Below are positions 3,496-30,770 of a stretch of DNA of 64,000 nt, in pieces (the stretch's first letter is position 1; every line of letters starts with the position of its first letter). This stretch comes from Muribaculaceae bacterium (GTDB lineage Bacteria; Bacteroidota; Bacteroidia; Bacteroidales; Muribaculaceae). The position numbers were made by a program, and so were the translations under genes. The notes beneath the pieces were generated by a model. The model was not told where the DNA came from, ran no database searches, and saw nothing but the letters and a program-made list of their open reading frames with translations. The stretch spans positions 6,563-70,562 of the forward strand of contig VSPN01000005.1 in the NCBI GenBank assembly GCA_009775355.1, given 5' to 3'.

Positions 3496-4434
3496 ATGAA
3501 CAGACAAATCAAGCCTAAAAGTCTTTCGCAGGCATTGCCTGATGAAAGCCGTGAGTCAGCACGTGTCATACGCCGCGTAGTCCGTATCGGATGCGCGGTC
3601 AATGCCTTTCTGATGCTTCTCAAGATCGTGGCCGGTAAGCTGGGACACAGCGACGCTCTCGTGGCCGACGGTTTCCATTCGCTCAATGACCTTGCCGCCG
3701 ACATCATTATGCTTCTCTTCGTCGGCATTTCCTACCGAGCCGCCGATAGCCGCTATTCTTACGGCTACGGGAAGTTCGAGACATTTTCATCTTTCATGAT
3801 ATCTGCGTTTCTTGTCGCGGTGTCGTGCATGATAGGTTTCGAGGCTGTCGAGTATATTGCGGGCTATGCCCGGGGAGAAGAGCTTCCGCAGCCCGACATC
3901 TGGACATTTGTCGTTGTGCTGCTGGCCATGGCTTGTAAGGAAGGTCTTTACCGGTTTTACTCGCGGGCAGGACGCCGCGCCGGGTCGAAGGCCCTGATTG
4001 CCAACGCATGGCATCACCGTAGTGACGCCCTTGCCTCTGTCGCGACTCTTGTCGGGGTCACATTCTCTCACTTTTTCGGTCCCGCTTTCAGGATACTCGA
4101 TCCTGTGGCCTCGCTGGTCATCGCTGTCTTTATCTTTGTGCCGGCGCTGAGGCTGCTGCGGCCGGCGTTTGCCGAACTGATGGAAAGGGCGCTTCCCGCC
4201 GGTGATGTCGAAAAAGCCCGCGAGGCGGTGTCGGCGGTAGCCGGGGCAGGAAAGATAACGTGGATGCGCACGCGCCGCATCGGACATCATCTTGTGTTCG
4301 ATATCGGTGTGGCTGTGCCGCCAGGCATGACAGTGGCGGAATGCGGCGGTCTGAAAGCTGATGTGACCAAGGCACTGAAGGAGACGTTTTGCAGTCATGT
4401 GATTGTGACTGTGTGCCCGGAACCGACGGAATAA
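3496..4434 (+). CDS. cation diffusion facilitator (CDF) family metal efflux transporter
   Basis: HSDALVADGFHSLNDLAADII and WHHRSDALASV metal-site motifs, six hydrophobic segments and a C-terminal cytoplasmic domain. The first ATG at 3496 was chosen over the TTG at 3490. Confidence 0.85.
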   Translation: MNRQIKPKSLSQALPDESRESARVIRRVVRIGCAVNAFLMLLKIVAGKLGHSDALVADGFHSLNDLAADIIMLLFVGISYRAADSRYSYGYGKFETFSSFMISAFLVAVSCMIGFEAVEYIAGYARGEELPQPDIWTFVVVLLAMACKEGLYRFYSRAGRRAGSKALIANAWHHRSDALASVATLVGVTFSHFFGPAFRILDPVASLVIAVFIFVPALRLLRPAFAELMERALPAGDVEKAREAVSAVAGAGKITWMRTRRIGHHLVFDIGVAVPPGMTVAECGGLKADVTKALKETFCSHVIVTVCPEPTE

Positions 4435-4565
4435 TGTCATCCATGACCTGCTTTTCTGGTCAAACATTGCGCGAGACCATGCTTTAATCGTACATTAACG
4501 CACCTTAACAGCGTATGAATAGCGTTTTAAAGTGTATTTGATGATGAAATTCTGAAAAAAATCCG

Positions 4566-4573
4566 TAATTTTG
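4566..4573 (+). promoter_or_regulatory. Bacteroidetes-type -7 promoter box (TAATTTTG) upstream of ddl
   Basis: Exact match to the TAnnTTTG consensus, 75 nt upstream of the preferred ddl ATG. Confidence 0.45.
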
Positions 4574-4647
4574 CATTTTGGAATAATCCGGAGTGTCGCA
4601 TGCCGTCTGATGGCGTTCCATATGCTCCGGCCCAGACTTATAAGAAA

Positions 4648-5844
4648 ATGAAAACCAATGTAGCAGTCTTTTTCGGAGGTCGCTCCGTCGAGCATGAGAT
4701 CTCCGTCATTTCGGCCATACAGGCCATCAACGCTTTCGATGCGGACAAATATGAGATAATTCCTGTGTACATTTCAAAACAGGGCCGCTGGTACACCGGC
4801 CGCAATCTTCTCGACCTGAAGAACTACCGCAATCTCGACAGGCTTGTGGCCGAGGCCGACGAAGTGTTCATGCGTCCCGAATACGGTGACTACAATCTCT
4901 ATAAGGCCGACACCGGATTCTTCTCAAGAAAAAATCAGGTGGTGGCCACTCTTCATGTGGCCATTCCCGTCCTTCACGGCACCAACGGCGAGGACGGTAT
5001 ATTCGAAGGACTGCTCCAGACGATCGGAATCCCCTTCGCCGGCTGCGACACTCTCTCGTCGGCCAACGGCATGGACAAGATCACGATGAAGATGATTCTC
5101 CGCTCCGAGGGAATACCCGTTGTAGATTACGTCTGGTTTACCGACAACGAGTGGAATGGAGGCCGCGACGCTATTGTTGAAAAGATCGAGTCGAAGCTCG
5201 GTTATCCTGTGATTGTGAAGCCTGCCAATCTTGGCTCCTCTGTCGGCATCGGCACGGCAGCCGACCGCCGCGAGCTTGTGGAGCGTGTAAACAACGCCGC
5301 TAAATTCTCACAGCGCATCATTGTAGAGCACATGGTCGAGCGTCTTAAGGAAATCAACTGTTCTGTTCTCGGCGATGCCGACGACCATCGGAGTTCTGTC
5401 TGCGAGGAACCGATCAAGACCGGCAAGTTCCTCTCTTACGAAGACAAATATATGGGCGGAAGCAAGACCGGACAGGGCATGCAGGCAAGCGAGAAGCGAA
5501 TTCCGGCCGATCTCCCGGAGGAGATGAGCGAGAAGATACGACATCTGGCCGGCGAGACATTCCGGGTGCTTTCGTGCCACGGCGTGAGCCGCGTCGACGT
5601 TATGATAGATGAAAAAGACAATTCGGTCTATGTCAATGAGATCAATACGATTCCCGGCTCGCTGTCGTTCTATCTCTGGGAGGCATCGGGCATATCGTTC
5701 ACCGAACTGATGGATCGCCTCGTGGCTCTTGCCCTGAAACGCAAGCGTGCCACCGACCGCAAGACTTTCACTTACGACCAGAATATCTTTGCTCTCGGCG
5801 GCGGCGTAAAGGGTGCCAAAGGATGCAAAGGCTCCAAAATGTGA
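4648..5844 (+). CDS. ddl: D-alanine--D-alanine ligase
   Basis: MKTNVAVFFGGRSVEHEISVISA, HGTNGEDGIFEGLLQTIGIPFAG and VNEINTIPG motifs. Start set at MKTNV (4648) rather than the track's 4600. Confidence 0.9.
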   Translation: MKTNVAVFFGGRSVEHEISVISAIQAINAFDADKYEIIPVYISKQGRWYTGRNLLDLKNYRNLDRLVAEADEVFMRPEYGDYNLYKADTGFFSRKNQVVATLHVAIPVLHGTNGEDGIFEGLLQTIGIPFAGCDTLSSANGMDKITMKMILRSEGIPVVDYVWFTDNEWNGGRDAIVEKIESKLGYPVIVKPANLGSSVGIGTAADRRELVERVNNAAKFSQRIIVEHMVERLKEINCSVLGDADDHRSSVCEEPIKTGKFLSYEDKYMGGSKTGQGMQASEKRIPADLPEEMSEKIRHLAGETFRVLSCHGVSRVDVMIDEKDNSVYVNEINTIPGSLSFYLWEASGISFTELMDRLVALALKRKRATDRKTFTYDQNIFALGGGVKGAKGCKGSKM

Positions 5845-5860
5845 ATTAATTAATCAGCAT

Positions 5861-8800
5861 ATGAAAAAATTCAAGGAATATACCGGTCAGCTCAGTCTGT
5901 CGGACATCAACAAGGAGATGCTCGCAGTCTGGGATGAACAGGCTCTTTTCGAACGCTCCATGAAGGAGCGCGAGGGCTGCCCCTCGTTTGTTTTCTATGA
6001 AGGTCCCCCGTCGGCCAACGGAATGCCCGGAATCCATCATGTCATGGCCCGCACGATCAAGGATATCGTGTGCCGTTACAAGACGATGAAGGGTTTTCAC
6101 GTGAAGCGCAAGGCAGGATGGGATACCCACGGCCTTCCCGTCGAACTCGGTGTGGAGAAGACTCTCGGCATCACAAAGGAGGATATCGGTAAGAAGATAT
6201 CTGTCGATGAGTATAACGCCGCATGCCGCCGCGAGGTGATGAAATACACGAAGGAATGGACTGACCTTACTCACCGAATGGGCTATTGGGTCGATCTCGA
6301 GAATCCCTATATCACATACGACCAGCGCTACATGGAGTCTGTGTGGTGGCTTCTCGCCCGGCTTTACAAGAAAGGATACCTGTATAAAGGATATACAATC
6401 CAGCCCTATTCTCCCGCAGCCGGAACCGGCCTAAGCTCTCATGAGCTCAACCAGCCCGGATGCTACCGTGATGTGAAGGATCTTACGGCTACAGTCCTTT
6501 TTGACATCCTTGACCCCAAACCGGAGATGGAGGGCTGGGGACGTCCCTGCTTCATGGCATGGACCACAACCCCCTGGACTCTTCCTTCCAACACGGCACT
6601 CTGTGTAGGCCCGAAGTTCGATTATGTGGCCGTGCGCACGTATAATCCTTACACCGGCGAGAAAATCACGGTTGTTCTCGCAGAGGTGCTCCTGGATTCC
6701 TATTTCAAGAAAGAAGGGCGTAATATTACACTTGAAGATTATAAACCGGGCGACAAGATCGTGCCGTATGAGATCACGGGCCGCTGGAAGGGTTCCGATA
6801 TCGTGGGCATGCGCTACGCGCAGCTCATGCCGTGGGTGCGCCCCACTGAGCGTGTCGACGAGTTCTCTCCGAAATACGTTACGGACTATGCAGCCGCACA
6901 TCCTGAAAAGGTATACTCTGTAGGCGACGACCGTTTTGTCGAGATTGCCGAGTGCGCGTTCCGCGTCATACCGGGCGACTATGTCACTACCGACGACGGT
7001 ACGGGCATCGTCCACATCGCGCCGACTTTCGGTGCCGATGACGCCAAGGTGGCCAAGGCAGCCGACATACCGGCGCTTTTCATGATCAATGCGAAAGGGG
7101 AGACGCGTCCGATGGTCGATCTTTCAGGTAAATTCTATCTTCTGGAAGATCTTGCTCCCGGCTTTGTGGAGGCATGTGTCGACGTAATTCTTTATTCTCG
7201 CCACGAGGGGCAGTATGTGAAAAACGCCTATGATCCGAAGTATACGGTCGACGGCAAGTTTGACGAGAAGCGTGCCGCCGCCGACGAGGATCTCAATGTG
7301 GAACTCTGCATGGAACTTAAGAAGGATGGCCGTGCGTTCCGCACCGAGAAGCATGTGCATAATTATCCTCACTGCTGGCGCACCGACAAGCCGGTGCTCT
7401 ATTATCCGCTCGACAGCTGGTTCATCCGTACGCCTCAGGCACGCGAGCGTCTGATAGAACTCAACGGTTCGATCAAGTGGAAACCGGCATCGACCGGCTC
7501 GGGCCGCTTCGGCAAATGGCTTGAGAATGTGCAGGACTGGAATCTTTCGCGTTCACGCTACTGGGGCACTCCGCTGCCCATCTGGCGCACTGACGATGGC
7601 CGCGAGGAGGTGATAGTCGAAAGCTACGAAGATCTCTTCAATCGGATCGAGGAGTCTGTGGCCAAGGGTGTCATGGCTTCGAATCCACTTAAGGACAAGG
7701 GGTTCGTGCCCGGCGAATATACTGCTGAAAATTACTCGCGCATCGACCTCCACAGGCCGTATGTCGATGAGATCGTGCTTGTGTCGGAATCTGGTCGCCC
7801 CATGCGCCGGGAGACGGATCTGATCGATGTATGGTTTGATTCGGGCGCGATGCCTTACGCGCAGATCCACTATCCTTTCGAGAACAAGGAGCTGCTCGAC
7901 AGCGGAGAGGTCTATCCCGCCGACTTTATCGCCGAGGGTGTGGACCAGACCCGCGGATGGTTCTTCACTCTGCATGCGATTGCGGGCATGGTGTTCGACT
8001 CGGTGGCTTACAAGGCAGTGATCTCAAACGGCCTCGTGCTCGATAAGCATGGGCAGAAGATGTCGAAGCGTCTCGGCAATGCCATTGATCCTTTCGACAA
8101 CATGGAGCGTTTCGGCATAGATCCCGTGCGTTGGTACATGATCTCCAACTCCTCTCCATGGGACAACCTCAAATATGACGAAGAGGGTGTGGCCGAGGTG
8201 GGCCGCAAGCTTTTCTCGACTCTCTACAACACATACAAGTTTCTCGCCCTCTATGCCAATGTCGATGGTTTCACAGGATCTGAACCTGCTGTGCCTGTAG
8301 CAGAGCGCCCCGAGATCGACCGCTGGATTCTCTCGCTGCTCAATTCTCTCGTGCATGAGGTGGAGACTGATCTTGATGATTACGAACCGACCAAAGCCGC
8401 ACGTGCCATAGAGGAGTTTGTCAACGACAACCTTTCAAACTGGTATGTCCGTCTCAACCGTCGCCGTTTCTGGGCCGGAGAGATGGATCAGGACAAGCTG
8501 GCCGCATATCAGACCCTGACTGAGTGTCTCAGGACTGTGGCTCTGCTCATGGCGCCTTTCTCGCCGTTCTATGCCGACCGCCTGTACACCGATCTCGTCG
8601 CGCCTTCGTCGGACGACGGCGAGTATGTTTCGGTGCATCTCGCCGATTTCCCTGTGGCCGACGTTTCTGTCATCGACAAGGATCTTGAGGAGCGCATGAA
8701 CCTCGCCCAGATCATCACTTCCAATGTGCTCGCCCTTCGCCGCAAGGTCAATCTCAAGGTGCGCCAGCCTCTTCAGACGCTGCTTGTGCCAGTCATGGAT

Positions 8801-13558: not shown

Positions 13559-14149
13559 TCAGACAGTCAGGATTATCTCTTTCTCGTTGGCTATGCGGCG
13601 CAGATTGAGAATCGCGTAGCGCATGCGTCCGAGCGCGGTGTTGATGCTCACACCGGTGATCTCGGCGATCTCTTTGAAACTGAGTCCCTGATAGTAGCGC
13701 ATCTTGAGAACCTCGCGCTGGAGCGCTGGCAGTTCGCCGATCAGATACTTCACGTCGGTGCGTATCTGATCCGATATCAGAATGTCTTCTATCGTCTCCT
13801 CGCAAAGCTCCTTGCGGTTGAGTATGTCGACATCTGTCAGATCGGAACTCTGCAGGTTTTCCGACTTCTCCTGACGGTAGTAGTCGATGATCAGATTGTG
13901 GGCGATCCGGGAGATCCATGCCGGAAACTTGCCGTTCTCTGTGTAGCGGCCAAGACGGATGGTCTGTATCGCTTTTACGAATGTCTCCTGAAAGATGTCG
14001 TTGGCTATATCCTCGTTTTTGATTATACGGAGTATATAGTTGAAAATGCGGTCCTGATGACGCTTAAGAAGAGTGTCGAATGCTTCGTTGTTCCCCTCTG
14101 CGTATGCCCTGACAAGCTGCTCGTCTGTCAAGGTTGTGTAATTTGCCAT
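13559..14149 (-). CDS. RNA polymerase sigma-70 family (group 4/ECF-type) sigma factor
   Basis: Region 2 is DIFQETFVKA...FPAWISRIAHNLIIDYYR. Region 4 HTH is LSFKEIAEITGVSINTALGRMRYA. No adjacent anti-sigma ORF is present. Confidence 0.85.
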   Translation of the reverse strand: MANYTTLTDEQLVRAYAEGNNEAFDTLLKRHQDRIFNYILRIIKNEDIANDIFQETFVKAIQTIRLGRYTENGKFPAWISRIAHNLIIDYYRQEKSENLQSSDLTDVDILNRKELCEETIEDILISDQIRTDVKYLIGELPALQREVLKMRYYQGLSFKEIAEITGVSINTALGRMRYAILNLRRIANEKEIILTV

Positions 14150-14446: not shown

Positions 14447-14692
14447 TCATAGCCGTGTGCCGACGGCTGTCAGGATGACTTGCCATAACGTTCTGCCGCC
14501 GGAGTGCGGATAGGGGAGTGTCGTGACGATTGCTGCGGCTGCCGCGAAGATTATGGCTATGGCCGTGGTGCCGTGGCGCAGCAGCGATGAAGGTTCGCGG
14601 TCGATGAATGTGCGGATCTCCCGGCTCTGTTCCTTTTCACGCTTTGTGACGCTGTGCGTATGCGCCGTGTTTTTGTTGTCTTGTTTTGTCAT
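14447..14692 (-). pseudogene. HlyD-family (bacteriocin-exporter adaptor) N-terminal stub
   Basis: 81-aa ORF. IDREPSSLLRHGTTAIAIIFAAAAAIVTTLPYP matches the N-terminal anchor region recalled for Bacteroidetes peptide-export HlyD proteins (...PP.W..R.G......YPD). It starts 6 nt after the ABC remnant, and the normal ~350 further residues are missing. Confidence 0.65.
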
Positions 14693-14698
14693 AAGCTA

Positions 14699-15225
14699 TT
14701 ATGTGCCGAGTTCGAGCTGGTTCTTTACGAGTGAGTAATACAGACCTTTTTTCGATGTCAGTACGGCGTGGTTTCATCCCTTTCTGAAGGCCTTTCGTTT
14801 CTGCTGAGGTGTCGGATGAAAGCCATCGGTTTTCAAATTCCTTACGGCTGTAAGCGATGCGCCCTTTTCAGGGTCTGCGATGTGGAATCTCTTCGATGAA
14901 GCTTTGTAGAGCACCGTGAAGTGGTTTTGCTCCCAGTGCAGCACGCAGGGTAACGGCAGCTGAATGAGTTCGTCGGTTGTGATGTTTCAAATCCCAGAGC
15001 TGCGGCACCGTCTGAAATGCCTTTCAGCGAGACGCCCTCGGCTGTGGGCGTGCAGTATTACTCAAGATGCCCCAGACTGTATCGGCGCCCGTAGTGACGA
15101 CAGATCATGGCGAGACATGCTATGCCGCATTGCATCGCGTCTTTCTGATATAATGACTTTGAATGCCATTCCCTCTTCAACTTGCGGAATTTCCTCGAAA
15201 AAACGCACCGTCCCTGCATTAACAT
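14699..15225 (-). pseudogene. C39-peptidase-domain ABC transporter (bacteriocin exporter), badly degraded
   Basis: My translation gives ...YQKDAMQCGIACLAMICRHYGRRYSLGHLE*YCTPTAEGVSLKGISDGAAALGFET, then a frameshift, then DELIQLPLPCVLHWEQNHFTVLYKASSKRFHIADPEKG...RKG*NHAVLTSKKGLYYSLVKNQLELGT*. The C39 Cys and His boxes and the last ~23 aa of the ABC domain are present. TAA lies at 15058-15060, the frameshift at ~14971-14985 and TGA at 14774-14776. The TMD and most of the NBD (~550 codons) are absent. Confidence 0.8.
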
Positions 15226-15278: not shown

Positions 15279-17393
15279 TTATTTGAGTATCGCCGACTCA
15301 GCCTTTTCTGTCGCTCCGATCTCGTTGCCTCTCCTGATCTGTTTTCCGTAGCCGAATGTATAGCCCACGTAAAACGCTATTGCGGCATGGCCTGCCTGGC
15401 CGAAGCTCGTGGTTTTGCTGAAGTATTCCGGAACGTTGATCTCCGAAATCGAATATATCCAGTCGGTCTTGAGGAAGCGCGAGGCTGTGAGACGCAGATT
15501 CCATTTGCCGTTTCCCCAGCCGGCCTGAAGATAGTAATGACTATTACGCGTGTCGGTCGAATTGGTTATTTTGTTTAGCTCGCGGCTTCTCAGTGAATAG
15601 AACGCCGAGAAGTAGAAGTTTTTTATGTAGTATGTCGCGGATGCTGACAGTTGGAAGTGCTGGAGTTTTTTTGAATACGTGCCGGTCATGTCGTAGAAAT
15701 CCATGCGTGGCGACGCCGATAGTCTCAGCGATCGGTTGAGCAGAGACCAGTTGAACGATACTCCAACGTTTGCATATGTGAAGTCTCCGTTGTTAACGTA
15801 GTTGCGGAGCAGCGCGTCATATCCTGGATAGGCCGAATATAATGTGGTCAGTTTGTTGTTGTAGCGATCCATCATTCCGTAGGCGAAGAGGCTGAAGTTG
15901 TCGGTCGGCATGAAGGAATATCCGAGATTCGCGGTGATTTCATCATAGCTGTCGAGCGTAGGGTTTCCTCTGTAGTACAGAAGCTCGTTTTCCTGAAGTG
16001 TGTCGGGAGATTTGGAGGTGGCTCCTGTCGGAATCCTGCTGTATTTGCCGAAGAATTGAACTGAGTTTTTGTTGTTGGGTTCGTAGGTGAAGTATAGCTG
16101 GGCTCTCGGGGTCAGCGATACATTGGTCTTGCCATTCATTGTGGTGTGTTCCCAGTCGATTCCGAGACGAGGGGAGATTTGGATCTTGTCTGTCGTGAAT
16201 GAATAGAAGAGATCTCCATATATATTGTTCCATGTGAAAATGTCGCGATAGTCAGTGTTGCCTGTGTAATCGATCTTGTTGCGCTGCGAATAGGCGTGTA
16301 TCTGAGCTCCGAGATAATGGTTGGCGGCCTGTTTGCTTATATATACGGTTCCGCCGCCAAAGAGAGTGTTTTCTTTGGCTAGCCTTGTGATCGAGAACGG
16401 CATGTCGGTTGTGTACAGATAGTCGCTGTGCGAACGTGTGTGGCTGATGCGCGGCATCATTCCGATTGTAAATTGTCCGGGAAGATAGACCGTGTAATTG
16501 CCGAAATAGTTTATGGAATTATCTCTTGACGGAGAGTCGGACTCATAAAGATAGTCGCGGCTGTTGTCAGGTTCCCATTCGAGCGTTCCCGTCATGCGGT
16601 TGCGCTTCATGTCGTAATGGGTATAGCCGAGCCGGTTCTCTATCGTGACATTTCTCGAATTGTAGATTGCACGGAATGTAACCGGATAATTGCCCTGTGT
16701 CATTCCTGAGCTTCCGACAGTGGTCTTTCTTTCGGGGGCTGAGGCCGGATCGCCCACGGCGGCGAGACCTCTGAAAACGGACTTTGATTCGGAGCCTGAG
16801 TGTTTTGAATCCCAGTTCATAGCTCCGACATAAAGGTCGTAGGTCATCGACTTATAAGCGAATTTGGAGAATACGCTCGCGTTGCTTGACAGTCCGATAA
16901 GTGCATGCTCAGTGACGTTGAGTTTTGTATATCCGCCGAATTCGTAGACTTTCATTATGATGTTCACAACCTTAAACGCACCTTTGAAGCGGGGATCCTG
17001 AGGTGACTCAAGATACATCACTTTCACCACGTCAGAGGTTTTAAGACCTTGCAGTTCCTCTTCTGTTGCCGGCATATAATTTATGTAAATATCGATATTG
17101 TTGCCGAATCTGTCGGTGATCGAATTGCTTCCGCTTACTGCATCGATCTGTGGTATTTGCATGCGCGCGATAAGATCCACGGCGTTGGTCGCGGAGTTTT
17201 TTTCTGCGGTTGTCGGAGTGTATATCGCACCGTTTTTTACCAGCATGCGGGTATTGCTTTCAATCACAATTTCCTGCAGTTCCCGGGACTGTGTGGAATC
17301 GTTCTGTTCCGTGTTGTCGGAAATGGAAGTGGACTGTGCTGCCGCGCATGCCGAAAATAACGCTAAATTGATAAATAACAGTCTGGATCTCAT
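15279..17393 (-). CDS. outer-membrane beta-barrel protein (plug-like N-domain, OMP_b-brl_3/TonB-receptor-like)
   Basis: Intact 704-aa ORF with signal peptide MRSRLLFINLALFSACAAAQS. It has a plug-like segment NAVDLIARMQIPQIDAVSG...IDIYINYMP...VVKVMYLESP and an alternating aromatic/Gly-rich barrel to the C-terminus. Confidence 0.75.
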   Translation of the reverse strand: MRSRLLFINLALFSACAAAQSTSISDNTEQNDSTQSRELQEIVIESNTRMLVKNGAIYTPTTAEKNSATNAVDLIARMQIPQIDAVSGSNSITDRFGNNIDIYINYMPATEEELQGLKTSDVVKVMYLESPQDPRFKGAFKVVNIIMKVYEFGGYTKLNVTEHALIGLSSNASVFSKFAYKSMTYDLYVGAMNWDSKHSGSESKSVFRGLAAVGDPASAPERKTTVGSSGMTQGNYPVTFRAIYNSRNVTIENRLGYTHYDMKRNRMTGTLEWEPDNSRDYLYESDSPSRDNSINYFGNYTVYLPGQFTIGMMPRISHTRSHSDYLYTTDMPFSITRLAKENTLFGGGTVYISKQAANHYLGAQIHAYSQRNKIDYTGNTDYRDIFTWNNIYGDLFYSFTTDKIQISPRLGIDWEHTTMNGKTNVSLTPRAQLYFTYEPNNKNSVQFFGKYSRIPTGATSKSPDTLQENELLYYRGNPTLDSYDEITANLGYSFMPTDNFSLFAYGMMDRYNNKLTTLYSAYPGYDALLRNYVNNGDFTYANVGVSFNWSLLNRSLRLSASPRMDFYDMTGTYSKKLQHFQLSASATYYIKNFYFSAFYSLRSRELNKITNSTDTRNSHYYLQAGWGNGKWNLRLTASRFLKTDWIYSISEINVPEYFSKTTSFGQAGHAAIAFYVGYTFGYGKQIRRGNEIGATEKAESAILK

Positions 17394-17541
17394 AAGATTG
17401 TTGTTAGAACCGATAAAACGGCTTGATTAGATGTGAGATTTGTTTGTTTTTTCTCGGAAATTTCGGAAACCCGATCCCGCCGATTGATGGATGATCCGGA
17501 TTCTCTCTTTCTTCGGAAAGAAACCGGATTATCTGTCAGTG

Positions 17542-17745
17542 TCAGTTTGAATGCGAGAAGCAGCCGTAGTCGTAGCTTTCAGTGTCGTTGCAGTTACAGG
17601 TGTTTTCCGATGTCTGCGAGTTGCAGTCGCATGAGAATGACGCACCTCCGTTGCATACGCACGATGATGCCATGCCTCCTCTTACAGAATTGCTTTCCGA
17701 CGGGGTGAGCCTCGGTCTGAAGTTTTTAATTATCATTTCTTTCAT
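17542..17745 (-). CDS. candidate RiPP precursor: double-glycine leader plus Cys-rich core
   Basis: ATG at 17745 gives MKEMIIKNFRPRLTPSESNSVRGG / MASSCVCNGGASFSCDCNSQTSENTCNCNDTESYDYGCFSHSN. The leader fits L(-12) T(-11) E(-8) V(-4) G G. The gene lies between the rSAM/SPASM gene and the OM barrel. Confidence 0.6.
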   Translation of the reverse strand: MKEMIIKNFRPRLTPSESNSVRGGMASSCVCNGGASFSCDCNSQTSENTCNCNDTESYDYGCFSHSN

Positions 17746-17866: not shown

Positions 17867-19077
17867 TTATAATCTGAGTTGCTTTTTCTCCTTGTTGGGA
17901 TTCTCTTCGGTTGAAGAAAGCAACGCGCGCTTAAGATTCTCTTTGTCGCGGAATGCCGAACAATAGAAGAAGTCAGATCCTTCGAATCTGTTGCGATAGC
18001 GCAGCATTCCGCAACCCCCGTCGCATATCGGAAATACGAAGCATTGCTTGCATTCTTCGTCAAACGGACTGCATTCGTGCATGTATCTCATCAGTCGTGG
18101 ATAGTTATGGCGTCTGTTGTCAGCGATGCTTCCGATCACCTTGTCGTGACTGCTGACGTCGTTCCAGCATTTGTAGAGTTCTTGTAGAGGCCTGTCAGTT
18201 CCGAGGGATTTATCGACGAATAGCACAGTTTGTTTCCTCCCGTCGCATCTTCTCTGATCAGGCCGGGGTAGGGGTATATCTTTCTGTGACGCTCCTCATT
18301 ACGGAACATGTCGTAGATTTTTACGAAATCATCGCGGTTGTTGCGATTTATGTTGACCCGCAACGATATGTCGAGTTCCGGCATCGATTCAGCCAGCTTC
18401 TCGATGTTGGCCATGATTCTGTCGAATGTCGGAGTTCCGATTCCTTTGAGGAATCTGGTTTTGTCGTGATTCTCTTTTATTCCGTCTATCGAGATCTGGA
18501 TTCTGTCAAGTCCGATCTCCTTGAATATGGCTATCACATGATCGTCGATGAGATAGGCGTTGGAGATCAGTTCCTGATACTGGATCTTTTTTTCGGTTTC
18601 CGATTTGAGCCTTTTGTGAATTGTTTCGATTTCTGCCGCCATCAGCAGAGGTTCTCCGCCATACCATGTCAGCGACACAGTCTCGATCTCTTTCTGGTTG
18701 TTGACGTAATCGATTATTTTGTCGATTGTCTCTTTTGTGACAGACCGTGGATTTTTCTTTGGCTCGAAACAGTAGGGACACTCGAAGTTGCATCCGGTTG
18801 TAGGTGCGATGATCAGCGACATGTGTTTGGAGCCGTATGCATCCGTCAGAAATCGTGTCAGTGAGTCATAATAGAATGTGTATTTCTCTTCTCAATTGAC
18901 TATTATCCCTTTCTCCTTGAGTTCAGAGAATAGTTCTTCGGGCAGCTCATCCCAGCTGTGGTTATATAGAATTTCGTATAGATCTTCAGAGATCTCGGAG
19001 AAGTAAAGGCTCTCCGAATTGAAAAGATAGTATTTGCCGTTTTCAGTAAATAGGAACGTGTATATCGAGAGTATCAT
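17867..19077 (-). pseudogene. radical SAM/SPASM peptide maturase, interrupted (one in-frame TGA and one frameshift)
   Basis: Three track ORFs form one protein. The N-terminal peptide-binding-like domain (19077-18895) is followed by TGA at 18894-18892, in frame with the rSAM core (APTTGCNFECPYC, WYGGEPLL; to ~18250). A 1-nt frame change near the C4 runs (18245-18275) leads into the SPASM domain (CDGRKQTVLFVDKS...LYKCWNDV...CKQCFVFPICDGGC; to 17867). Confidence 0.8.
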
Positions 19078-19094
19078 GACGGTAGCATTATTGG

Positions 19095-19235
19095 TCAGTA
19101 TATGGTTGATCCTTGTTCTTTGATGGGATAGGAATAATTATGATTGTCTGGGCATTTACACAAATGGTGTACACAATTGTCAATGGTGCACGCGATTGTC
19201 AATAGTGCCGAACAGATAAGAGATTTACCTTTCAT
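19095..19235 (-). CDS. hypothetical 46-aa Cys-containing peptide or lipoprotein-like ORF upstream of the maturase
   Basis: MKGKSLICSALLTIACTIDNCVHHLCKCPDNHNYSYPIKEQGSTIY sits ~35 nt downstream of a TATCTTTG box and ends 17 nt before the rSAM ATG. Coding status is doubtful because a 2x19-bp DNA repeat inside it is out of frame with itself. Confidence 0.3.
   Translation of the reverse strand: MKGKSLICSALLTIACTIDNCVHHLCKCPDNHNYSYPIKEQGSTIY
19166..19203. repeat. tandem 19-bp direct repeat (2 copies, 16/19 identical)
   Basis: Plus strand: ggtgtacacaattgtcaat / ggtgcacgcgattgtcaat. Each unit carries two mini-palindromes (GTGTACAC or GTGCAC, and ATTGNCAAT). Confidence 0.8.
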
Positions 19236-19269
19236 TTTTATCTTTAGATGTAGACGCATGCTTGTCAGA

Positions 19270-19659
19270 TCAAAGATAACAAACCATTGCGTTTGCATAG
19301 TGTCCGTTTGTATAATCGCATATTCCTGCGAGGTAATGGGCTTTGGCCGCGTTACGTGAGTCTTTCTTGCGTTCGTAATAGTCTGCCGCTACCCGAGCGA
19401 TCGAGTCATCGAGCGGAAGAGAGTCTGCCTTATGGCGGGCCTTGGTCAGAAGCTTGTTGTATCGTGCTTCGACTGATTCATGTTTTCTTCGCGGAAGCTC
19501 GATCTTGCGGAGAATCCGGAGAGCCGAGTCCGGATCCGAATCAACAAGTGATTCGGCAGTATCCAGTTGAATCCGGGTGTGTGAATCCGAACATGAGAAC
19601 AGGCATGTCATAATGCCCATGATGCCAAGCAGGAGAACTGTCAGAGTAAGACTTCGCAT
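19270..19659 (-). pseudogene. N-terminal fragment of a TPR lipoprotein/regulator family protein
   Basis: Lipobox LFSCSDS is followed by DTAESLVDSDPDSALRILRKIE...YNKLLTKARHKA...DDSIARVAADYYERKKD...AKAHYLAGICDYTNGHYANAM. This resembles the first ~130 aa of ~500-aa Bacteroidales TPR(+LuxR) proteins (from memory). The ORF stops abruptly in the promoter box. Confidence 0.45.
19271..19278 (-). promoter_or_regulatory. -7 promoter box (TATCTTTG on minus strand) for the rSAM operon
   Basis: Exact TAnnTTTG match. It overlaps the stop codon of the truncated TPR ORF. Confidence 0.45.
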
Positions 19660-19730
19660 GATACTGCAGTTTTGACCGCAAATACAATGCAAATATTCTT
19701 AATCGCAATACTTATGAAAACATATTTCGT

Positions 19731-22730: not shown

Positions 22731-23984
22731 TCAATATTTTTTGGCTGGGCCGAACGAATTGACGTATCTGTCGTTGCTCTCATTGTACCCTTTGTCCAGC
22801 CTGGTGGCAAGTCCGAGCACGTTTGATCCGCAATCGCGGTTAAGCCGATCGACAGCCTCCATGAGTCGGCGTGATCTTGCGGCTGCGAGACGCCGCGCCT
22901 CCATATCTTCAAACAGCGAGGGGGCAGCTTCGCGTTCGGGAATTATTTCTGAAAGTGTCACGCCGGCGCGTTTGTATCTGTAGGCAGGGTCGAATATGCT
23001 CTCTGAGATTCTGACTGCAGTGTCGGCTATGACGTTGGTGTCGCTTGTGGGTGGATCGAGTCTTACGGATGCCGACGGTGTGATATAACCGCGCTCGCGG
23101 TGAAAGCGGTTTGTGGCCATAAATACGCTCACCACGCCGCAGACCCCTTTCATGGCTCTGAGTCGTCGGGCAACATCAGTGCTGTAGATCACTATCCGTG
23201 ATCGTATATAGTCGAAGTCGCCGATATCAGTCGGAAATGTGCGTGTCTCGCTCACCGACTCCTGAAGCGTGCGTGAGGCATGTGCGAGTTCGATGCACGG
23301 CTCGCCATGCAGTTCGCGCCAGCTGCGCTCGCCGTGCACTCCGAGTTCTCCGCGCACCCATATGAGTTCCTTGCGTGCGAAGTCTCCTATGGTGTGGACT
23401 CCGGCAAGATACATGCGTTTTGCGAGTCGTCGCCCTATCCCCCAGAGATCGCCGATCGGCATGTCTGACAGTATCTTTCCGATTTCTTCTTGGTCTGTGA
23501 GCATGACTACTCTTTCTCCCGCTTTCTTTCCCCGTTCGGTAGCGATCTTGGCCAGGGTCTTGGTGGCGGCGAATCCGATTGTGACTGGTATACGCTCCTC
23601 TTCCATGCACGTCTTGACAATGGCCGCTCCGATTCCGGGAAGTTCGGAGTCGGGTATTCCCGTCATGTCAAGAAATGCCTCATCGACCGAGTAGTCCGTG
23701 GTGTCTGGAGCATACCGTCGGAATATGTCGTGGATCCGCAGGCTGATGTCGCGGTAGAGTGTGTGGTTGCCTGAAAGTGCGATAAGTTGCTCCGATGTGA
23801 TCAGTTCGCGCAGTTCGAAGGCGGGCTGTCCCATCTTGACGCCGAGCCGCTTGGCCTCGTTGCTGCGGGCCACGGCGCAACCGTCGTTGTTGCTCAGCAC
23901 CACTACGGCACGGCCCTCGAGCTGCGGATTCTGAGCGCGTTCGCAGCTCACGAAGAAGTTGTTGCAGTCTGCAAGTCCTGTCAT
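22731..23984 (-). CDS. Y-family DNA polymerase (UmuC-like)
   Basis: Start at MTGLADCNNFFVSCERAQNPQLEGRAVVVLSNNDGCAVARSNEAK, with YSVDEAFLD. The ATG overlaps the recQ stop (ATGA at 23981-23984). The track's Arg/Pro-rich N-terminal extension was discarded. Confidence 0.85.
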   Translation of the reverse strand: MTGLADCNNFFVSCERAQNPQLEGRAVVVLSNNDGCAVARSNEAKRLGVKMGQPAFELRELITSEQLIALSGNHTLYRDISLRIHDIFRRYAPDTTDYSVDEAFLDMTGIPDSELPGIGAAIVKTCMEEERIPVTIGFAATKTLAKIATERGKKAGERVVMLTDQEEIGKILSDMPIGDLWGIGRRLAKRMYLAGVHTIGDFARKELIWVRGELGVHGERSWRELHGEPCIELAHASRTLQESVSETRTFPTDIGDFDYIRSRIVIYSTDVARRLRAMKGVCGVVSVFMATNRFHRERGYITPSASVRLDPPTSDTNVIADTAVRISESIFDPAYRYKRAGVTLSEIIPEREAAPSLFEDMEARRLAAARSRRLMEAVDRLNRDCGSNVLGLATRLDKGYNESNDRYVNSFGPAKKY

Positions 23985-25903
23985 TTCTGTATTTGCCTGT
24001 CTGTTTCGAGTGTCAGTCTGACGTAACCGTCGGTTATGGTGATGTGGCCTTCTCCGGTCAGCCAGCTGATGGCTTCGGCGAGAGGCGTGCGGGAGGCTCG
24101 CAGGTCGTGGTCGAGTATTCTGAGGTCGACCCCTTCGGGATGACGGTTCATGTAGTCGAGCACGCGTGTTATCATGACGCGGGGATCGTCGGCTTCGCTT
24201 TTGCGGCGTCCGCGGCATGTGTCACATCGTCCGCATTCTTTCTTCCGCACTTCCCCGAAGTATTCGAGCATCCGGTTTTCACGGCATATTCGCGGATTGA
24301 ACGCATAGTCGATCATGGCTTCGACGCGCCGGCTCATGATCTCTTTACGCACCTCGTATATGTCGCGTCCGATCTGAAGGTAGCGAGGTTCCTCTCGCGA
24401 TGTGGGTATGTACATCAGCGGCATACGGCTGCGAGGTATGTAGCTGATTGTGCCGGACCGCCCGAGCTCGAGGAGCGCCTCATAGACATCACGCTCCGAG
24501 GTGTCGAGTGCTCTCGCTATTGTGGCTTCGTTGATGCAGACATAGTCGGTGAAAAGCCCGGTGTAGCCGCGCAGCAGGCAGGTGAGCACGCGTTCGGCGA
24601 GATGGGAGAGGCATTTTAGATGGTACAGTTCCTCACGGTCGCAGGTCACTGTGACGCGCGCACGCCGATCTGCTTCCTCCATGTATTCCAGATAGCCGGC
24701 CTGTTCAAGTATCTTCAGGGCGGCGCGGCACTGGCGGGGCTGGTAGCCGAACGTATCGCAGAATTTCTCGATATCGAATTCTTTCAGTGTATCGTATCCT
24801 TCTCCGACAGATATGTGCAATGAATTGCACACTCGTTCGTATATCTTCTTTATTATGTCGCGTGCCGGGAATGCTTCAGTGACTCTCCTGCGCATTACGC
24901 CCCGGTCAGTGCGGGCGGTAAGCAGGACAGCGTAGCTTTTTTCTCCGTCGCGCCCTGCGCGCCCCGCTTCCTGATAGTATTCCTCAAGGCTCGGGGGGAG
25001 ATCGTAGTGTATCACCACGCGGACATCTGGCTTGTCGATACCCATTCCGAAGGCGTTTGTCGCAACCATGACGCGGATCGTGCCGTTCTTCCAAGAGTTC
25101 TGTCGCTCCTCTTTAAGTTCGTGGCTGAGTCCTGCGTGGTAGGCTGCGGCCGATATGCCGGCCGACAGAAGATAGTCGGCTATCTCTGCGGTACGCTTCC
25201 GGCTGCGGACATAGACTATGGCTGTGCCGGCCGTACGGCTGAGTATGTGGAAGACCTCGCTGATCTTGGTCTCGGCCGGACGCACTATGTAGTTTATGTT
25301 GTCGCGTGTGAAGCTCATGCGGAACACGTTGGGAGTCCGCATGCCGAGGCGAAGGCAGATATCGTCGGCCACTTCTGGTGTCGCAGTGGCCGTGAGTGCC
25401 ATTACGGGCACCCCGGGTTTCGTGTCGCGTAGTCTGGAGATGTTGAGGTAGGACGGGCGGAAGTCATATCCCCATTGAGATATGCAGTGCGCCTCGTCGA
25501 CCACGATGAGACTGACGTTGAGACGTCTCATAAGTGCGGTGAAACTGTCGTTGCCGAGACGTTCTGGCGATACGTATAGAAACCGGGCGCCCCCGTTGAC
25601 GAGTTTCTCGCATGCCATGTCTTTCTCTCTGCGTGTCATGCCCGAGTGGAGCGATACGGCCTTGATGTGACGCCGCCGCAGATTGTCGACTTGGTCTTTC
25701 ATCAGCGAGATGAGTGGGGTGATGACTATCGTTATGCCGGGCAGCATGAGACCCGGCACCTGGAATGTTATGGATTTGCCGCCGCCGGTGGGCATAAGCC
25801 CGAGTGTGTCGTGACCGGCAAGCACAGACTCTACTATCTCCTTCTGGAGCGGTCTGAAGCTGTCGTATCCCCAGTGCCGTCTGAGTGTGGCGAGAGCATC
25901 CAT
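23981..25903 (-). CDS. recQ: ATP-dependent DNA helicase RecQ
   Basis: MPTGGGKSITFQVP (Walker A), VVDEAHCISQWGYDFRP (DEAH) and the Zn-binding CGRCDTC region. Confidence 0.9.
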   Translation of the reverse strand: MDALATLRRHWGYDSFRPLQKEIVESVLAGHDTLGLMPTGGGKSITFQVPGLMLPGITIVITPLISLMKDQVDNLRRRHIKAVSLHSGMTRREKDMACEKLVNGGARFLYVSPERLGNDSFTALMRRLNVSLIVVDEAHCISQWGYDFRPSYLNISRLRDTKPGVPVMALTATATPEVADDICLRLGMRTPNVFRMSFTRDNINYIVRPAETKISEVFHILSRTAGTAIVYVRSRKRTAEIADYLLSAGISAAAYHAGLSHELKEERQNSWKNGTIRVMVATNAFGMGIDKPDVRVVIHYDLPPSLEEYYQEAGRAGRDGEKSYAVLLTARTDRGVMRRRVTEAFPARDIIKKIYERVCNSLHISVGEGYDTLKEFDIEKFCDTFGYQPRQCRAALKILEQAGYLEYMEEADRRARVTVTCDREELYHLKCLSHLAERVLTCLLRGYTGLFTDYVCINEATIARALDTSERDVYEALLELGRSGTISYIPRSRMPLMYIPTSREEPRYLQIGRDIYEVRKEIMSRRVEAMIDYAFNPRICRENRMLEYFGEVRKKECGRCDTCRGRRKSEADDPRVMITRVLDYMNRHPEGVDLRILDHDLRASRTPLAEAISWLTGEGHITITDGYVRLTLETDRQIQK

Positions 25904-30659: not shown

Positions 30660-30733
30660 GGGGCATTAGCTCATCTGGCTAGAGCGTTTGACTGGCAGTC
30701 AAGAGGTGACGAGTTCGAGTCTCGTATGCTCCA
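30660..30733 (+). tRNA. tRNA-Ala (anticodon GGC)
   Basis: Hand-folded 74-nt cloverleaf. Acceptor stem is GGGGCAT/ATGCTCC with G3:U70, D stem GCTC/GAGC and anticodon loop CTGGCAG. T arm is ACGAG-TTCGAGT-CTCGT, the discriminator is A, and no CCA is encoded. Confidence 0.9.
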
Positions 30734-30770
30734 CGTAAGGAACAACATCAACATCAGAAACGCTATTTTA

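Follow-up and report, generated by a model that had tools for sequence, protein, structure and literature searches.

A cysteine-rich double-glycine peptide gene of a Muribaculaceae bacterium, probably a relic of a decayed radical SAM peptide cluster

Does a short open reading frame (ORF) that looks like the precursor of a modified peptide, and lies beside the gene of a radical S-adenosylmethionine (rSAM) enzyme, still encode a peptide that its host can process? The question is raised by positions 17542-17745 of contig VSPN01000005.1 from a Muribaculaceae bacterium, counted within the 64-kb stretch that was analysed (hereafter the window), where an initial annotation had proposed a precursor with a double-glycine leader and an rSAM-crosslinked core. 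The ORF is a true homologue of precursors of peptides that are made by ribosomes and modified after translation (RiPPs) and has the right kinds of neighbours, but the cluster around it is dead, with maturase, exporter and primary precursor broken or gone. We consider it likely that the ORF is the surviving downstream paralogue of a RiPP precursor in a decayed cluster, most probably a non-functional relic.

The ORF and its parts are as follows.
17542..17745, minus strand: precursor-peptide ORF, 67 codons plus stop (translation; family profile match)
17745..17674, minus strand: leader, codons 1-24, 24 aa, ending in RGG
17673..17545, minus strand: core, 43 aa
The coordinates and translation first given for the ORF were exact; it sits on the minus strand, where the reverse complement of 17542-17745 reads MKEMIIKNFRPRLTPSESNSVRGG (leader) followed by MASSCVCNGGASFSCDCNSQTSENTCNCNDTESYDYGCFSHSN (core), from an ATG at 17745 to a TGA at 17544-17542. 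A plus-strand reading was rejected, as it has stops throughout. The ORF begins 121 nt 3' of the stop of the rSAM/SPASM gene (17867) and ends 148 nt 5' of the start of a 704-aa gene (17393). The leader residues L-12, T-11, E-8, V-4, G-2 and G-1 were all confirmed by eye, although the description of a textbook double-glycine leader needs tempering: the Gly-Gly and most consensus sites are present, but relatives carry Met or Leu at -7, and this leader has Ser there. Measured against the pattern of C39-peptidase substrates, the leader thus has G-1, G-2, V-4, E-8 and L-12 and no hydrophobic residue at -7, and no leader hidden Markov model (HMM) matched it at E<=1. By count, the core contains 5 acidic residues and 7 Cys but neither Lys nor Arg, with SCVCN, SCDCN and TCNCN starting at core positions 4, 14 and 25, as had been reported. 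Among 200,000 shuffles of the core, at least three CxC arose with P=0.03, and three [ST]CxCN were reached 0 times (P<5e-6).

Single-sequence searches were made in a word-indexed set of 5.8 billion proteins and, exhaustively with phmmer, against 1.84 billion representatives. In both the sole close homologue was P0001, a peptide identical at 64 of 67 positions that comes from a Muribaculaceae metagenome-assembled genome (MAG) and is annotated as a protein at NCBI. Pfam and NCBIfam, bacteriocin-leader models included, gave no meaningful match to the window peptide or to ten related precursors, and a look-up of the exact window sequence gave no record. The suspicion that the peptide differs from SCIFF and CXXX-repeat precursors was borne out: it matched none of the SCIFF, CXXX-repeat-like, CefA, Clo7bot and TIGR04149 models. 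Single-sequence searches were insufficient to reveal the wider family, which became visible only through the genomic context of the maturase and then by profile. A maturase profile scan over 185,579 species genomes yielded 80 loci. A first ORF scan, confined to regions downstream of the maturase and to ORFs with at least 3 Cys, missed most precursors because they lie upstream; at the closest maturase loci a Cys-rich small ORF with a Gly-Gly leader stands immediately upstream of the enzyme gene. A Cys peptide with such a leader occurs beside the maturase on the coding strand at 55 of 81 loci (48 upstream, 7 downstream), against 0/81 in the antisense control, and the core has at least two CxC at 23/81, across Muribaculaceae, Prevotellaceae, Porphyromonas and Parabacteroides.

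The precursor family proper comprises the upstream precursor of the P0001 locus (L001), those of L003 and L004, and 11 clusters found by profile (P0122-P0132). Its leader follows M..FLEVFNEG[IL]SPxEMNAVRGG and its core AADPLCTCxNGAxYDCGCYSxCTCNGxGSxLxCSCN, in which the eight Cys form four CxC pairs. An HMM built from 12 members, none of them from the downstream paralogue of the window lineage, was run against 1,227 six-frame segments of the window, and its sole significant match was the ORF (E 1.5e-12, 44 bits; next E 0.08). As a profile from other lineages matches only this ORF in the window, the ORF is not a product of chance. Conservation at the amino-acid level, which the initial annotation had named as a check, was found by this profile search: the Gly-Gly leader is kept across the family, and the paralogues are 30-46% identical. 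The proposed association with rSAM genes elsewhere also held, since precursor homologues stand beside an rSAM/SPASM gene with a RiPP recognition element (RRE) and a C39 exporter in relatives; the 3/3 members looked up have a tetratricopeptide repeat (TPR) protein, a small protein, the precursor, the rSAM enzyme, a barrel-like protein of ~720-737 aa and a peptidase-containing ATP-binding cassette (ABC) transporter (PCAT). No full-length HlyD/TolC export pair was found in the family clusters; the window lineage has just an 81-aa piece that may be of HlyD type. These precursors form an unnamed, uncharacterised Cys-rich family of mouse-gut Muribaculaceae.

Within this family the window ORF is atypical. 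Its position directly 3' of the rSAM/SPASM gene was correctly described, but the family norm is 5' of the maturase; the canonical 5' copy is present in L001 (6254-6475) and deleted in the window. The peptide of the window and P0001, a second paralogue restricted to the window lineage, has diverged to 30-46% identity with the family, and its leader has Ser at -7 and RPR or RPG where the family has NEG; it aligns with the L001 upstream precursor at 38% identity over 60 aa (tblastn, E 6e-8). No second downstream precursor was found in L003, L004, L084, L086, L088 or L089. The core, too, differs from what had been supposed. What looked like a lone Cys in YDYGCF belongs to a fourth CxC, YDCGCF, which the two nearest relatives keep whole, and the core consists of two 16-aa repeats, SCVCNGGASFSCDCNS and TCNCN(G/D)TESYD(C/Y)GCFS. 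The pattern of three [S/T]CxCN motifs is therefore the remnant of these two repeats after C60Y broke the fourth pair. What is conserved in the core is the CxC pairs; the arrangement of three CxCN plus a lone Cys is the decayed form of a 4xCxC core. The change lies here.
17566..17568, minus strand: codon 60, TAC (Tyr), where L001 and its decayed relative L082 have TGC (Cys) (three-way codon comparison)
Cys60->Tyr is specific to the window copy and abolishes the fourth pair: the window peptide has 7 Cys and three pairs, whereas L082 and P0001 have eight Cys as four CxC.

The state of the cluster was judged against L001, which is intact and recurs identically in a second MAG (L002). Its genes run from a TPR protein (595 aa) through a DUF3244-like protein, a 73-aa precursor, a 437-aa rSAM/SPASM enzyme (6567-7880) and P0001 to a 704-aa protein, a 737-aa C39-peptidase ABC exporter, an 81-aa ORF, a sigma factor and glnS. 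The 73-aa upstream precursor (6254-6475) reads MKKLILNVFNEGMTQSQLNSVRGG followed by ASTNGCTCFNGATYDCGCYSDCTCNGAGTKFTCSCNK... across its Gly-Gly site. By blastn and tblastn against L001, four deletions were mapped in the window.
L001 4126-5805: absent from the window; most of the TPR gene
L001 5851-6538: absent from the window; the DUF3244-like gene and the upstream precursor
L001 7461-7565: absent from the window; 103 nt of the maturase, taking residues 299-333 with the invariant SPASM Cys319 and shifting the frame
L001 10929-12664: absent from the window; most of the exporter (~1.7 kb)
The genes that these and a later mutation have broken are represented in the window by the following remains.
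17867..19077, minus strand: RRE-radical SAM/SPASM maturase pseudogene, in pieces 19077..18892, 18891..18184 and 18190..17867
18892..18894, minus strand: in-frame TGA at maturase codon 62 (CGA in L082, CGG in L001)
18182..18183, minus strand: junction of the 103-nt deletion in the maturase (blastn against L001)
14702..15172, minus strand: remnant of the C39-peptidase ABC exporter (PCAT), residues ~1-136 (with frameshifts) and 714-737 of 737
19240..19692, minus strand: TPR protein remnant, first 140 of 595 aa; this gene heads the cluster in relatives
19097..19238, minus strand: remnant of the DUF3244-like small secreted protein (tblastn fragments; DUF3244 match)
The first maturase piece ends at the in-frame TGA, the second holds the radical-SAM core (CNFECPYC), and the third holds the SPASM C-terminus after a frame shift near 18183; against the intact L001 enzyme only residues 1-298 and 331-437 align (tblastn). 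The 103-nt deletion is flanked in the intact sequence by the imperfect direct repeats CTCTACA and CTTTACA, consistent with an origin by slippage or microhomology. A cognate PCAT is intact in L001, where it has C39, ABC-membrane and ABC-ATPase domains, and is reduced to ~470 nt of remnants in the window. The primary precursor gene, which stands beside the DUF3244-like gene in L001, is wholly absent, and no second rSAM or PCAT gene was found within the 64-kb window.

These deletions are real, because L082, a Logan contig from an independent run that shares 99.4% identity with the window across 10.6 kb, has every one of them; sequencing or assembly error as the source of the broken genes was rejected on the same ground. 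Two mutations of the window are absent from L082: maturase codon 62 is still CGA and not TGA, and peptide codon 60 is still TGC for Cys and not TAC. The cluster therefore decayed stepwise, from intact (L001) through multiply deleted (L082) to the window, with its added nonsense mutation and Cys loss. The decayed maturase allele also occurs in Logan assemblies as P0004, with 31 member sequences. Relative to L001, the barrel gene shows 59 synonymous and 30 non-synonymous codon differences, so it is still under purifying selection; the peptide shows 3 non-synonymous and 1 synonymous, which gives no signal of purifying selection, four codon differences being too few to test. The loss of Cys60, at a family-invariant position, is a single event that fits relaxed constraint. 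Elsewhere, L087 (883-4374) has its rSAM gene called as 324 + 85 aa and its barrel gene as 298 + 122 + 245 aa, and in L086 (4291-6421) the barrel gene is split into 298 + 393 aa; these broken clusters may reflect recurrent decay of the cluster type or assembly errors in Logan contigs.

From these comparisons a working order can be proposed for the intact system (L001/L002). The leader of about 24 aa (..NSVRGG) would be bound by the N-terminal RRE-like domain of the rSAM/SPASM enzyme, which would modify the CxC-pair core, with Cys-derived thioether cross-links favoured; the C39-peptidase ABC exporter would cut after the Gly-Gly and export the product, and the dedicated TonB-receptor-like barrel would serve its outer-membrane passage or re-uptake. 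In the window lineage, deletions took away the first precursor and the DUF3244-like gene, the greater part of the TPR and exporter genes and 103 nt of the maturase; the maturase nonsense mutation and Cys60->Tyr came later. With maturase, exporter and primary precursor lost, the ORF is not processable by its own cluster, and we infer that it has lost its function.

What chemistry the intact enzyme performs is suggested by its relatives. The maturase carries the Pfam signatures Radical_SAM and Fer4_12 and the NCBIfam SPASM model TIGR04085 (37 bits against a cutoff of 27). Enzymes of the family have a CxxxCxxC motif (CNFECPYC), SPASM with seven invariant Cys and an N-terminal domain; the window gene is a pseudogene of this type. 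Homologues at E<=1e-30 number 1,316. For a homologue with 65% identity, the AF2 model (pLDDT 93.8) shows an RRE-like domain at the N-terminus, built beta-beta-beta-alpha-alpha, and the best PDB match of the model is the thioether synthase CteB, over the full length including the N-domain (E 7e-19, TM ~0.65), with anSME, TigE, SuiB and ChlB as further matches. Among NCBIfam models the enzyme scores 200 bits with Clo7bot TIGR04334 (cutoff 600), 192 with TIGR04463 (525), 187 with CefB NF038107 (600) and 114 with CcpM (500), and no curated family cutoff was reached by the maturase or by ten other Bacteroidales relatives. Judged by similarity to enzymes of which CteB is the nearest solved structure, thioether chemistry is plausible, and links of the sacti- or ranthipeptide kind would be the single most likely outcome for the intact system, with about an even chance of being right.

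The general kind of cluster is already known from genome mining, and it is the 4xCxC family that is unmodelled. Closest in enzyme structure are the SCIFF systems, exemplified by CteA-CteB (thermocellin; PDB 5WGG, 5WHY), which share a short Cys-rich precursor beside an RRE-rSAM-SPASM maturase; CteB also shares seven conserved SPASM-region Cys, a number given for CteB, Tte1186 and QhpD in PMC10352776. The differences are considerable: the window-family maturase scores 80 bits against the TIGR03974 cutoff of 425 and is ~19% identical to CteB, and its precursor lacks a SCIFF model match and has a Gly-Gly leader, PCAT export, a Gram-negative host and CxC pairs. Neither peptide nor maturase belongs to SCIFF by TIGR03973 and TIGR03974. 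The best-scoring curated models, Clo7bot (TIGR04334), TIGR04463 ('rSAM_vs_C_rich') and the Cys-every-fifth CefB (NF038107), likewise describe rSAM/SPASM enzymes named for Cys-rich partners, but the scores lie far under cutoffs of 525-600 and the precursors match no partner peptide model. These families are defined by genome context only, and no experimental characterisation of Clo7bot, TIGR04463 or CefB was found in the literature searched. On both maturase cutoff and peptide match, membership in Clo7bot, TIGR04463, CefAB and CcpM fails. The GG-Bacteroidales system (TIGR04149) has the same order of hosts, a Gly-Gly leader and an rSAM-modified peptide, but TIGR04149 does not match the window peptide (best relative E 3.4, 7.6 bits, cutoff 25), and its pseudo-rSAM gene is absent from the clusters of L001, L084, L086 and L088, which places the family outside this system as well. 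Because the tests for SCIFF, Clo7bot, TIGR04463, CefAB, CcpM and TIGR04149 all failed, we regard the family as an unmodelled variant and not as a member of a named one. PapB and its product freyrasin share repeated short Cys motifs served by one rSAM/SPASM enzyme, and the PapB model matches at 114 bits, but this is under its cutoff of 340, and PapB lacks the long N-terminal domain alignment of the window-family maturase; moreover, PapB acts on CX3D/E motifs according to the abstract of PMC9413430, whereas the repeat unit here is CxC.

The nearest published description is a survey of Bacteroidales clusters (PMC10352776, Front Microbiol 2023), which reports rSAM/SPASM enzymes with Gly-Gly-leader Cys-rich precursors and PCATs, often with TPR and outer-membrane protein genes, and states that no class I bacteriocin has been characterised from Bacteroidales. 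Its BGC1 and BGC2, as presented there, share the architecture, the TPR gene and the same reasoning from Gly-Gly leader, PCAT and rSAM, by bioinformatic prediction only; they differ in coming from human-associated Bacteroides and Phocaeicola, and the comparison is one of descriptions, not of sequences. The Muribaculaceae 4xCxC family and its decayed copies are not described in that survey. No papers on the Muribaculaceae family or on CxC-pair precursors were found in a literature search whose scope lay outside the rSAM RiPP atlases of subscription journals. Papers on DUF3244 gave no useful lead.

How firmly, then, can the ORF be called a relic? Several points weigh against that conclusion. The ORF is still open and diverges from L001 by ~2.5-3% of nucleotides, against ~5% in its surroundings, which could mean some remaining function or merely a recent relaxation of selection; the evidence for relaxed selection is anecdotal, one substitution specific to the window. 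Only 64 kb of the genome is visible, and the rest might encode a paralogous maturase and exporter that work in trans. As to the chemistry, the structural neighbours include the non-thioether enzymes anSME, TigE and SuiB, and the nearest curated families (Clo7bot, TIGR04463, CefB) are themselves uncharacterised. On these grounds the ORF might be an orphan precursor that is still functional, matured and exported by a paralogous rSAM/SPASM-PCAT cluster elsewhere in the genome, and the intact ORF, slightly better conserved than the flanking DNA, the large maturase family (the 1,316 homologues) and the persistence of the decayed allele in several public samples (the 31 sequences of P0004) would suit such a view. 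We nonetheless think it unlikely. It requires an as yet hypothetical cross-talk between clusters with different leaders, and no leader in the family diverges more than the one concerned (Ser at -7, RPR for NEG); the window copy has newly lost a family-invariant Cys, and the 64 kb holds no second maturase or PCAT.

Other readings concern what the peptides are. They might be secreted metal-binding peptides, resembling metallophores or metallothioneins, in which CxC chelates the metal, the barrel re-imports the complex and the rSAM enzyme spares the thiols. In methanobactin operons a RiPP is accompanied by a TonB-dependent transporter and a sigma factor, and here two 16-aa repeats with four CxC pairs between them, an acidic core that lacks Lys and Arg, a conserved TonB-dependent-receptor-like barrel with a plug-region match, the lack of a full-length HlyD/TolC pair and, in the window lineage, an adjoining extracytoplasmic function (ECF) sigma factor all lean that way. 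Yet the sigma factor is not a conserved neighbour, no gene or regulator in the cluster is related to metals, the closest structure yet solved belongs to a thioether synthase that draws on the Cys of its substrate, and CxC cores are common in the maturase clade with very different spacings, a pattern that suits motifs for an enzyme as well as it suits chelation; we judge this reading about as improbable as the orphan one. It is more improbable still that the peptide is an unmodified, bacteroidetocin-like class II product that needs only the PCAT and to which the rSAM gene is irrelevant. Its Gly-Gly leader and the PCAT of the intact relative would allow this, and unmodified peptides with such leaders are reported from Bacteroidales in PMC10352776, citing Coyne 2019; against it stand the adjacency of precursor and rSAM gene at 55/81 loci versus 0/81 controls, the N-terminal RRE-like domain of the maturase, and an acidic Cys-rich core that is unlike the cationic or amphipathic class II peptides and matches no bacteriocin model. 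Least credible of all is a chance ORF in the intergenic DNA or 5' untranslated region that separates the barrel gene from the rSAM pseudogene, even though the gene caller did not call the ORF on L082, it has no Pfam or NCBIfam match, and P0001 stood alone in the single-sequence search of 1.84 billion representatives. P0001 is annotated as a protein in an NCBI MAG, three [ST]CxCN never arose in the 200,000 shuffles, and the sole family HMM match in the window (E 1.5e-12), with frame, leader and Cys pairs kept among paralogues at 30-46% identity, effectively refutes that interpretation.

Taking the ORF as a relic, its value lies in the intact relatives and the decay series more than in the window copy itself. 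We tentatively entertain, as a minority view, that the intact family is an undescribed RiPP class, with either a new CxC cross-link topology or chemistry or a peptide metallophore that leaves through the PCAT and returns through the barrel, of which the window would be an example in decay. In that case L001, L082 and the window would form a natural knock-out series for the loss of such clusters. The L001 maturase and its two paralogous substrates offer a concrete, testable precursor/maturase pair, drawn from a large Bacteroidales rSAM/SPASM clade that lies outside every curated model and for which no experimentally described product was found in the literature that could be searched. As CxC-pair cores occur at 23/81 loci over several groups, the chemistry would generalise. 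The three alleles (intact; deleted; deleted with nonsense mutation and Cys loss) make a small, clean case of RiPP-cluster decay in gut commensals, and since a convincing precursor ORF can stand in a dead cluster, matches from genome mining need the state of the neighbouring genes checked.

Three further neighbours, all on the minus strand, lie downstream of the ORF.
15279..17393, minus strand: 704-aa outer-membrane beta-barrel protein, TonB-dependent-receptor-like, a relative of OMP_b-brl_3; gene intact
14447..14692, minus strand: 81-aa ORF 3' of the PCAT, one predicted hydrophobic segment; conserved in L001 (12744-12989)
13559..14149, minus strand: ECF sigma factor, adjoining the cluster in the window lineage
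The 704-aa protein has no CarboxypepD_reg N-domain and no direct match in Pfam or NCBIfam, and BLASTP against one PF14905-bearing neighbour was not significant; profile-profile comparison (hhalign) with the PF14905-bearing neighbours of related clusters gave a probability of 100% and E 1.3e-57 over 639 columns. PF14905 (OMP_b-brl_3) or TonB-receptor-like barrels hold the same position in more distant clusters. The 81-aa ORF, without a match in Pfam and NCBIfam, starts with a basic stretch and includes a hydrophobic segment (..REPSSLLRHGTTAIAIIFAAAAAIV..), and it may resemble the N-terminal end of HlyD-type adaptor proteins; if it is of that type, it is a truncated remnant even in the otherwise intact L001 cluster. 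The ECF sigma factor, followed by glnS downstream of the cluster, is missing after the PCAT in L084 and L088. The TPR protein, which resembles the BT3442 family only weakly (51 bits; cutoff 940), could be a transmembrane sensor-regulator of the cluster. By eye, the L001 copy (3774-5561) has a lipoprotein-type signal (..LFSCSD), TPR repeats, a hydrophobic segment GFAIISVLIILLVAAGYFIRVIYL and a coiled-coil or C-terminal domain.

Around the ORF, a scan for sigma-70 promoters and terminators stayed at background level, and the only promoter-like find was an imperfect Bacteroides-type -7 box, TATTTTTT, at -70. Directly behind the ORF lies one structured element.
17490..17533, minus strand: imperfect hairpin directly 3' of the precursor stop, -24.3 kcal/mol, z -1.8
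The orthologous L001 hairpin (8213-8260) has a 14-bp perfect stem (-26.8 kcal/mol, z -3.9, 0/200 shuffles as good), and the window copy is interrupted and weaker. Because a U-tract is absent the hairpin is not a canonical terminator; it may be a transcript-end, processing or stability element of the precursor transcript.

CxC cores of other designs were seen at maturase loci in other genera. Three DC[TNC]CGS[AG]NSN repeats occur at L020 4643-4915, L021 1566-1817 and L022 4623-4907, their hosts being Hoylesella marshii, Porphyromonas levii and Hallella multisaccharivorax. Short CTCDCW[FI]SN peptides, often in tandem pairs, occur at L015 4531-4924, L017 4518-4891 and L042 2020-2193, in Parabacteroides, an uncultured Bacteroidales bacterium (L017) and Segatella copri. 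Cores of the form C[IKQ]CKC are found in a Prevotellaceae MAG (L026, L041), Proteiniphilum (L031) and Parabacteroides distasonis (L028). None of the maturases beside these cores reaches an NCBIfam cutoff.

Rfam and tRNA scans of the window gave nothing relevant to the precursor locus, the only Rfam/ARAGORN match being an unrelated tRNA-Ala(GGC) at 30660-30734 on the plus strand. At 22731-24218 on the minus strand, a 495-aa ORF encodes a Y-family (IMS/DinB-like) polymerase with an Arg/Pro-rich N-terminal extension of ~78 aa; the orthologue in L001 and L082 is 417 aa long, and the extension is probably due to an upstream in-frame ATG and not a real feature.

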